32,473 bases of DNA from a virus. Lineage: Duplodnaviria > Heunggongvirae > Uroviricota > Caudoviricetes. Location of the stretch: IMG/VR virus record IMGVR_UViG_3300045988_153444. One strand, 5' to 3'. Of this stretch, positions 30,332-31,266 are shown piece by piece (within the stretch, counting starts at the first letter, position 1; each line of letters starts with the position of its first letter). A program made the position numbers and the translations under genes. The notes beneath the pieces are model-generated. The model worked only from the letters and a program-made list of their open reading frames with translations. It ran no database searches and was not told the DNA's origin.

Positions 30332-30521
30332 GGCTTTCGCGTCGAAAATGAGGCGAAACTGAAAACGAGATTTCATTAACAAATAAGCAACATAAAAAAC
30401 GGTGGAAAACGCCCAGGAAAACATGATCTTTTGAGCGGATTTTTTAGATCCGACAATGAACGGTGATCCGGTGGTGCCGATAACGTCCATTATGTTAAAT
30501 AGCCCCGTTTTTCTTGAAATT

Positions 30522-30566
30522 ATAACCCACAGGTTATATAGTTAGTGATATAAACTACAGGTTATA
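30522..30566. promoter_or_regulatory. Candidate toxin-antitoxin promoter/operator
   Basis: Direct repeat ACAGGTTATA at 30529-30538 and 30557-30566; inverted repeat ATAACC/GGTTAT; -35-like TTGAAA at 30513 and -10-like TATATA. Confidence 0.4.
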
Positions 30567-30575
30567 GGATTGAGC

Positions 30576-30923
30576 ATGTGGACGGTACTTTTTAGCCAGC
30601 GATTTGACGACTGGCTAAATGAGCAAGAAGACGCTCTTCAGGAAAAGGTTTTGGCTGATTTGAAAAAGCTACAGGTTTACGGACCTGAGTTACCCAGGCC
30701 ATATGCCGATACCGTAAAAGGTTCTCGGTACAAAAATATGAAAGAGCTTCGCGTTCAGTTTTCTGGCCGTCCGATAAGAGCCTTTTATGCGTTCGATCCG
30801 ATTCGCCGGGCCATCGTTCTTTGTGCAGGAGACAAAAGTAACGATAAACGGTTTTATGAAAAACTGGTGCGTATAGCTGAGGATGAGTTTGCAGCACATC
30901 TGAACACACTGGAGAGCAAGTAA
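30576..30923 (+). CDS. Type II toxin, RelE/ParE superfamily (HigB/Gp49-like killer protein)
   Basis: …LRVQFSGRPIRAFYAFDPIRRAIVLCAGDKSNDKRFYEKLVRIAEDEF… typical of Gp49/HigB-like toxins; toxin-first order with a downstream XRE HTH gene; ATG 30576 with AGGA SD. Confidence 0.8.
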   Translation: MWTVLFSQRFDDWLNEQEDALQEKVLADLKKLQVYGPELPRPYADTVKGSRYKNMKELRVQFSGRPIRAFYAFDPIRRAIVLCAGDKSNDKRFYEKLVRIAEDEFAAHLNTLESK

Positions 30924-31222
30924 TGAGAACATTAGATGAGGTGATTGCCAGCCGTTCACCTGAAAGCCAGGCGCGAATTAAAGAAATGGCAGATGAGATG
31001 ATTCTTGAGGTCGGCTTGCAGATGATGCGTGAAGAACTCCAGTTATCACAAAAACAGGTTGCTGAGGCGATGGGTATAAGCCAGCCAGCAGTAACAAAGC
31101 TGGAGCAGCGCGGAAATGATTTAAAGCTGGCGACATTAAAGCGTTACGTTGAAGCTATGGGAGGCAAATTAAGCCTGGATGTTGAGCTTCCCACAGGAAA
31201 ACGAATAGCGTTTAACATCTGA
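30923..31222 (+). CDS. XRE-family HTH antitoxin (HigA-like)
   Basis: HTH …LSQKQVAEAMGISQPAVTKLEQRGN…; start overlaps the toxin stop (TAATG). Confidence 0.8.
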   Translation: MRTLDEVIASRSPESQARIKEMADEMILEVGLQMMREELQLSQKQVAEAMGISQPAVTKLEQRGNDLKLATLKRYVEAMGGKLSLDVELPTGKRIAFNI

Positions 31223-31237
31223 CCAGAACGAATGATA

Positions 31238-31266
31238 AGCCCCTGTTGCAAAGGGGCTTTTTTGTG
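31238..31266 (+). terminator. Rho-independent terminator
   Basis: agcccct-gttgcaa-aggggct followed by ttttttgtgtt. Confidence 0.65.

Follow-up and report, generated by a model that had tools for sequence, protein, structure and literature searches.

The viral sequence IMGVR_UViG_3300045988_153444 (IMG/VR; Caudoviricetes), a stretch of 32,473 nucleotides that will be called the window and is meant at its full length, makes up most of a ~48-kb phage-plasmid and carries at positions 30514-31269 a two-gene cassette encoding a Gp49-domain toxin and a helix-turn-helix (HTH) antitoxin. We conclude, with a probability of roughly 0.85, that this cassette is a functional HigBA type II toxin-antitoxin (TA) operon that acts as a maintenance (post-segregational killing) module of the phage-plasmid. 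As judged from its sequence features, the pair is almost certainly an ordinary, intact HigBA-type two-gene TA cassette with its own promoter, operators and terminator. Plasmid maintenance is probably its principal role. A previous sequence-only reading of this DNA had proposed a plasmid or prophage addiction module. That proposal gains support from the closest studied relative, the HigBA pair of IncC plasmids, which is a proven addiction module (PMC8265657), and the element can now be specified as a phage-plasmid.

Organization of the operon

The components of the cassette are as follows.

30514-31269, plus strand: the TA cassette as a whole, a self-contained operon with promoter, two genes and terminator
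30514-30519, plus strand: -35 hexamer TTGAAA, from the promoter scan; TTGAxx is at the equivalent position in most homologous loci
30521-30538, no strand: predicted operator O1, TATAACC-CACA-GGTTATA (TATAACCCACAGGTTATA), a perfect 7+4+7 palindrome with 7/7 arm pairs
30537-30542, plus strand: -10 hexamer TATAGT, from the promoter scan
30549-30566, no strand: predicted operator O2, TATAAAC-TACA-GGTTATA (TATAAACTACAGGTTATA), with 6/7 arm pairs
30566-30569, plus strand: toxin Shine-Dalgarno sequence AGGA, 6 nt 5' of the ATG, read from the sequence
30576-30923, plus strand: toxin gene (Gp49/PF05973, RelE/HigB fold), 115 amino acids, ATG at 30576 and stop codon TAA at 30921-30923
30911-30914, plus strand: antitoxin Shine-Dalgarno sequence GGAG, within the 3' end of the toxin gene and 8 nt before the ATG at 30923
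30923-31222, plus strand: antitoxin gene, 99 amino acids, ATG at 30923 and stop codon TGA at 31220-31222, with an XRE-type HTH at residues ~32-83
31237-31269, plus strand: intrinsic terminator, stem-loop AAGCCCCTGTTGCAAAGGGGCTT followed by TTTTGTGTTC, from folding energy and shuffles
30487-31212, plus strand: portion common to Y. pestis pPCP1 at ~95% nucleotide identity, which includes the promoter, the operators and both genes and excludes the terminator

The stop codon of the toxin gene and the start codon of the antitoxin gene share one base (TAATG) on the same strand, and the toxin-first arrangement with TAATG coupling described in the sequence-only reading is therefore what the two open reading frames (ORFs) at 30576-30923 and 30923-31222 display. 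From this layout, the toxin and then the antitoxin are predicted to be expressed from one promoter with translational coupling through the TAATG overlap, and a consensus scan found no internal promoter-like site between the two genes. The toxin could also be read from a TTG at 30570. The ATG at 30576 is preferred because the homologues start with MW..., as 36 of the 38 aligned sequences begin at this position.

Promoter, operators and terminator

The predicted promoter is sigma-70-like and has 10 of 12 consensus matches with a 17-nt spacer (consensus scan). O1 fills the spacer between the -35 and -10 hexamers and overlaps the latter by 2 nt. O2, which starts 28 bp from the start of O1, spans the predicted transcription start (~+1, placed from the location of the -10 hexamer) and abuts the Shine-Dalgarno sequence. 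The 10-bp repeat ACAGGTTATA at 30529-30538 and 30557-30566 is the right-hand part of both 18-nt palindromes. The sequence-only reading had listed a 10-bp direct repeat occurring twice plus a palindrome in the promoter; these features are where they were said to be, and the repeat unit is an 18-bp palindrome that is present twice, in place of a direct repeat and a separate palindrome.

The skeleton of these sites, TATAA-N8-TTATA, occurs three times in the window with 0.03 occurrences expected, and none of 100 shuffles reached three. No further match to the specific operator with fewer than three mismatches is present elsewhere in the window. The third occurrence of the skeleton, TATAATTATAGATTTATA at 31279-31296, lies between the terminator and a promoter-like site (31307-31335) of the downstream gene for a DUF3560 protein. 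It is without the half-site core ACC/GGT and could be no more than AT-rich DNA upstream of a promoter.

The strong terminator noticed downstream of the pair was borne out by folding. An 8-bp stem at 31237-31259 with five G-C pairs is followed by a T-run, and the hairpin has a folding energy of -19.1 kcal/mol (z = -4.4), with 0 of 200 shuffles folding equally well. When positions 30500-30580 were read by eye, no LexA/SOS box (a CTG-N10-CAG-like motif) was visible, and Rfam gave no RNA families anywhere in the window.

The toxin

The toxin scores 81.3 bits against the Pfam family Gp49 (PF05973; cut-off 23.9), and residues 12-105 correspond to profile positions 1-89 of 90, in agreement with its earlier assignment to the Gp49/HigB family. 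It also matches a PHROG annotated as "toxin" (E = 2e-33). More than 1000 homologues were found, all of which have PF05973 and most of which carry the label "type II TA system RelE/ParE family toxin". The toxin does not match the canonical HigB family (the Rts1/P. vulgaris type, HigB-like_toxin, PF05015), and its score against the NCBIfam equivalog TIGR02683 (upstrm_HI1419 RelE/ParE toxin) is 18.9 bits, below the cut-off of 62.85. An AlphaFold (AF2) model made from 38 homologues has a mean confidence (pLDDT) of 87 and predicts a RelE-type fold in which N-terminal helices are packed on an antiparallel beta-sheet. A Foldseek search with this model agrees, and the matches also include V. cholerae HigB2. 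All 33 family-invariant residues of the toxin are kept, including G64.

The antitoxin

The downstream protein had been read as an XRE/HTH antitoxin, and the profile searches point the same way: it matches HTH_3 at 40.0 bits (cut-off 23) and HTH_37 at 31.7 bits (cut-off 27). A phmmer search matched it to the solved M. tuberculosis antitoxins HigA3 (E = 4.6e-5) and HigA2 (E = 2.5e-4) and to S. pneumoniae HigA. By these matches the antitoxin is an XRE-type HTH protein. The N-terminal ~30 residues are presumed by us to bind the toxin, on the architecture of V. cholerae HigA2 and S. pneumoniae HigA. A single-sequence AF2 model of the antitoxin was uninformative (pLDDT 75.6), and the Foldseek matches that it gave were generic HTH proteins and non-significant (E >= 0.076). 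In public records the antitoxin is labeled only as "helix-turn-helix domain-containing" or "hypothetical".

Comparison of homologous loci

In order to compare the operon across its family, 80 genomic loci were fetched whose toxins are 54-98% identical to the one in the window; with the window and the IncC pair the count is 82. The toxin-first order with an ORF of ~99 amino acids next to it is kept in about 78 of the 82 loci. The junction between the two genes varies, with an overlap of -4 (ATGA) in 23 loci, a junction of +1 in 25 and an overlap of -1 (TAATG) in 5. Side observations come from three chromosomal loci (L065, L079 and L030), in which the toxin frame is seemingly interrupted, with a stop reached 29, 21 and 3 codons after the inferred start, respectively, and the downstream frame persists. 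These may be decaying toxins with orphan antitoxins, or artefacts of start inference.

The 110 nt that precede the toxin start were examined for 7+4+7 palindromes with at least 6 of 7 arm pairs. At least one such palindrome is present in 73 of 81 loci and at least two are present in 39, and the control counts are 17 of 80 for the region from -400 to -291 and 2 of 81 within the gene. The palindromes cluster at ~-55 from the toxin start codon, directly after the TTGAxx hexamer, and at ~-30. The commonest site in the family is TATAAGC-NNNN-GCTTATA. Perfectly symmetric variants are found by clade, namely AAGT/ACTT, AAAC/GTTT, AACC/GGTT (the window) and AGAT/ATCT, and overall there are at least five half-site variants with perfect symmetry. 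The AGAT/ATCT variant is from marine gammaproteobacterial metagenome-assembled genomes (loci L079 and L085), and related loci of the Acinetobacter clade have a near-symmetric site, TATAGAC/ATCTATA (6/7). Operators of the Acinetobacter clade, with the sequence TATAGAT-TATA-ATCTATA, are usually single.

The assignment of these sites as operators is well supported because their sequence differs among clades and their dyad symmetry does not, as would be expected of sites bound by a dimeric HTH repressor. O1 and O2 are thus very probably operators of the antitoxin, a prediction that agrees with the suggestion in the sequence-only reading that the upstream repeats serve as an operator. Additionally, the half-site variants track differences in the recognition helix of the antitoxin. 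This association is confounded by phylogeny, as the loci are not independent, and the correlation suggests that the recognition helix and the half-site vary together.

Mechanism and alternative explanations

The mechanism that we propose follows that of a type II TA module. A dimer of the antitoxin, alone or with the toxin as corepressor, would bind to O1 and O2 and repress the operon, and the N-terminal part of the antitoxin would sequester the toxin. The labile antitoxin would be degraded once the element is lost or antitoxin synthesis stops. The freed toxin would then cleave ribosome-bound A-rich mRNAs, leading to growth arrest, and cells that lose the prophage-plasmid would be counter-selected. 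The toxin is likely to be a ribosome-dependent mRNase, by analogy: this view of its activity is based on homology to the 55%-identical HigB of IncC plasmids and on the ranking of the fold matches.

Several observations weigh against this interpretation. Experimental data on the window pair or on its pPCP1 twin were not found in the literature searched. For the toxin, a phmmer search against sequences in the PDB gave no true match, with a spurious miniGq as the only hit, and an hhalign comparison between the toxin family and RelE of E. coli gave no alignment, so that the RelE catalytic residues could not be mapped on the toxin. The promoter scan taken alone is at chance level, with two sites found and 2.0 expected; the promoter call gains credibility from where it lies with respect to the operators and from TTGAxx being conserved in homologues. 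The centers of O1 and O2 are 28 bp, or ~2.7 helical turns, apart, which places the two sites on different faces of the DNA, and cooperative binding is therefore not self-evident. Finally, the phage-plasmid also encodes ParA, which puts in question the share that the module itself has in stability.

Three alternatives were considered: a role in defence, a different target for the toxin and an inactive remnant. Each of them is less well supported than a TA maintenance module. In the first, which takes up the mention of phage defence in the sequence-only reading, the main function would be abortive infection or superinfection exclusion: a second phage that infects the lysogen would shut off the transcription of host or plasmid, and with the antitoxin decaying, the toxin would stop translation before the cycle of the invader is complete. 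The module is on a temperate phage-plasmid beside other accessory genes, and HigB-type toxin-antitoxin-chaperone systems are reported to be anti-phage in a preprint (bioRxiv 10.1101/2024.02.24.581848). Residues 5-106 of the toxin match positions 190-290 of the 294 positions of the PADLOC candidate NsnC (E = 6e-7), and the antitoxin matches PADLOC HTH_VI. However, the former is a match to a single domain of a longer protein, there is no full-length match to a catalogued system, and the neighboring genes have no PADLOC matches. For the closest characterized homologue, the role demonstrated was that of an addiction module and not of a defence system (PMC8265657), and the cassette is also found on small non-phage plasmids (pPCP1 and a 7.6-kb E. 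coli plasmid), which fits plasmid maintenance. We consider it unlikely that defence is the main function, and the two roles are not mutually exclusive.

The second alternative concerns the toxin itself, which could be a ParE-like gyrase poison instead of an mRNA endonuclease; given the homology and the fold ranking that point to an mRNase, we regard a gyrase target as very improbable. The least probable alternative is an inactive TA remnant in which the phage-plasmid would use the HTH protein mainly as a transcription factor and the first gene would be carried along neutrally, as could be suspected from the third TATAA-N8-TTATA site just upstream of the promoter-like site of the next gene, but that site is without the operator core and no other operator-like site is in the window, both ORFs are intact and, apart from the pPCP1 antitoxin (95%), 98-100% conserved among plasmids of E. 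coli, phages of Yersinia and pPCP1, and none of the family-invariant toxin residues has been lost.

Host element and neighboring genes

The phage-plasmid nature of the element is reflected in the following genes of the window.

6409-8265: large terminase of the lambda gpA type
23679-26525: P2-like baseplate and tail fibre
26525-27142: tail-fibre assembly
28136-29113: IncFII-type RepA

Near-identical replicons are E. coli plasmids of ~47-52 kb, and all 62 of the 62 plasmids in PLSDB with the same RepA are non-mobilizable. Near-identical elements are also viable Yersinia phages (vB_YpM_39/41/44), in which the toxin is annotated as "higB2, putative toxin" and the antitoxin as "hypothetical". The cassette was found in 100 of 5426 complete E. 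coli genomes, and 102 of its 103 places are plasmid-borne. Two candidate relatives of the element were rejected: the pSLy3/SSU5 phage-plasmid group, which consists of SSU5-related elements, and the "pseudolysogenic" Yersinia phage HQ103, which is an unrelated 32-kb peduovirus.

Upstream of the cassette are two overlapping ORFs on the same strand, 29745-30044 (99 amino acids) and 30041-30331 (96 amino acids, annotated as shorter in relatives). The first has a weak similarity to HTH proteins and "mobile mystery protein A" (E = 1e-4, below the cut-off), and the second has no Pfam or PADLOC match. Both belong to PHROGs of unknown function, and together they may be another two-gene module. Downstream, the gene at 31384-32451 encodes the 355-amino acid DUF3560 protein, the C-terminal half of which is similar to a primase-annotated PHROG. 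In plasmid NZ_CP020497.1 and in phage vB_YpM_44, the gene that occupies this place has a length of only 381 bp. On the minus strand at 27106-27669, in the interval that separates the tail-fibre assembly gene from repA, is a gene for a hexapeptide-repeat transferase (Pfam Hexapep, E = 1e-12), which may be a moron. In related phages this region is instead occupied by a hin invertase together with an invertible tail-fibre segment.

Significance

The TA identity is already annotated in RefSeq. What is new is the exact architecture of the operators, their conservation and symmetric variation across the family and the sharing of the cassette with pPCP1. The practical value is modest and consists of a clean annotation of the antitoxin gene. 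Exact operator coordinates are also provided for a TA family that is present on pPCP1, on a phage-plasmid widespread in E. coli and on IncC plasmids, which are of clinical relevance. The natural specificity variants, in which half-sites of TATAAGC, TATAAAC, TATAACC and TATAGAT occur with variants of the recognition helix, could be used to study how paralogous HigA-type modules are insulated from each other.

Comparison with known systems

The closest characterized relative is the HigBA pair of IncC (IncA/C2) plasmids, for which the name Tad-Ata is also in use; this Gp49-domain kind of HigBA module goes by the names Tad-Ata or HigBA2-like as well. The toxins are 55% and the antitoxins 46% identical over their full length. 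Both pairs are toxin-first, the proteins have 116 and 100 amino acids in IncC and 115 and 99 here, and G64 is aligned. A study by Qi et al. (2021, PMC8265657) determined that the IncC HigB is toxic and is neutralized by HigA, that the pair stabilizes pACYC184 over 70 generations as an addiction module, and that HigB depletes the A-rich RNAs lpp, ompA and ssrA. The substitution G64V inactivates the IncC HigB (PMC8265657). In both systems two 18-bp TATA-rich palindromes are present right after a TTGAxx -35 hexamer. The IncC half-sites are TATAGG-N6-CCTATA in sites that overlap by 2 bp, whereas those in the window are TATAACC-N4-GGTTATA in sites 28 bp apart. The IncC genes are 4 nt apart and those in the window overlap, and the IncC host is a conjugative resistance plasmid in contrast to the phage-plasmid here. 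The non-canonical SOS box proposed for IncC has no counterpart in the window. In the IncC plasmid pKPHS3 (locus L004, 1330-1363), the proposed SOS box GATTGCACCTATATTAAGTA (PMC8265657) overlaps the second palindrome of the 18-bp pair TATAGGTTTGAATCTATA and TATAGGATTGCACCTATA. Judged against the family as a whole, both of these palindromes look like HigA operators.

The toxins with a GP49 domain form a distinct branch of the RelE superfamily and are always encoded toxin-first (PMC5906591). In the HigBA2 pair of A. baumannii, HigA is the repressor of the promoter and is assisted by HigB as corepressor (PMC5906591). This pair, encoded on pAB120, as well as HigBA2 and HigBA3 of M. tuberculosis, share with the window pair the Pfam domain of the toxin, an antitoxin of the XRE type and a gene order with the toxin first (a "reverse" TA arrangement). 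They are more distant relatives than the IncC pair. The antitoxin gene has matches of 68-69% nucleotide identity on Acinetobacter plasmids. HigBA of S. pneumoniae (PDB 6af3) and HigBA2 of V. cholerae (PDB 5ja8 and 8a0x) differ, with only 15-18% sequence identity. The pYR4 HigBA of Y. ruckeri was rejected as a relative, as it is a pair like V. cholerae HigB-2 and belongs to another subfamily.

In N15, likewise a phage-plasmid, the gp49/gp48 genes are also arranged with the toxin first. Their toxin is in the same Pfam family, to which N15 gp49 gave the name, and the antitoxins are 35% identical over the HTH. BLASTP gave no alignment between N15 gp49 and the toxin, and N15 differs in being a linear prophage of the lambdoid type that replicates by another system. 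The gp49/gp48 pair belongs to the Tad-Ata family of Dziewit et al. 2007 (cited in PMC5906591).

The pair most similar to that of the window is found on the Y. pestis plasmid pPCP1 (YPPCP1.09c/08c; WP_002225538.1 and WP_002213446.1), with 98% amino acid identity for the toxin and 95% for the antitoxin. At the nucleotide level, the pPCP1 copy (locus L003, 1087-1811) is ~95% identical from 27 nt upstream of the -35 hexamer to 10 nt before the antitoxin stop codon. It differs in O1, which is TATAACT-CGTA-GGTTATA, in O2, the left half of which is degenerate (GGTAAGC), and in having another downstream terminator. The pPCP1 pair adjoins pla, the plasminogen activator gene, on a 9.6-kb virulence plasmid of the ColE1 type. 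A toxin and upstream region identical to those of pPCP1 (L007/L003) was also seen in locus L006, the 9631-bp Scaffold15 of "Amphibacillus jilinensis Y1" (NZ_JH976447.1). This pPCP1-sized scaffold in a Firmicute assembly is probably contamination.

The near-identity of the two copies raises the question of cross-neutralization between the virulence plasmid of the plague bacillus and phage-plasmids infecting Y. pestis. Such cross-neutralization is possible because the cassette is nearly unchanged between the phage-plasmids of Y. pestis and E. coli and pPCP1. The Yersinia phages that bear the window version were isolated on Y. pestis EV76-CN, and EV76 presumably retains pPCP1. As a tentative and rather unlikely extension, the pPCP1 and phage-plasmid copies would cross-talk, with each antitoxin neutralizing the toxin and repressing the operon of the other, and the cassette would serve as an anti-addiction or incompatibility-like device, or as one for abortive infection or exclusion. 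If this were the case, cross-talk would affect the fate of the phage as a plasmid in plague bacilli, that of becoming established or of being lost.

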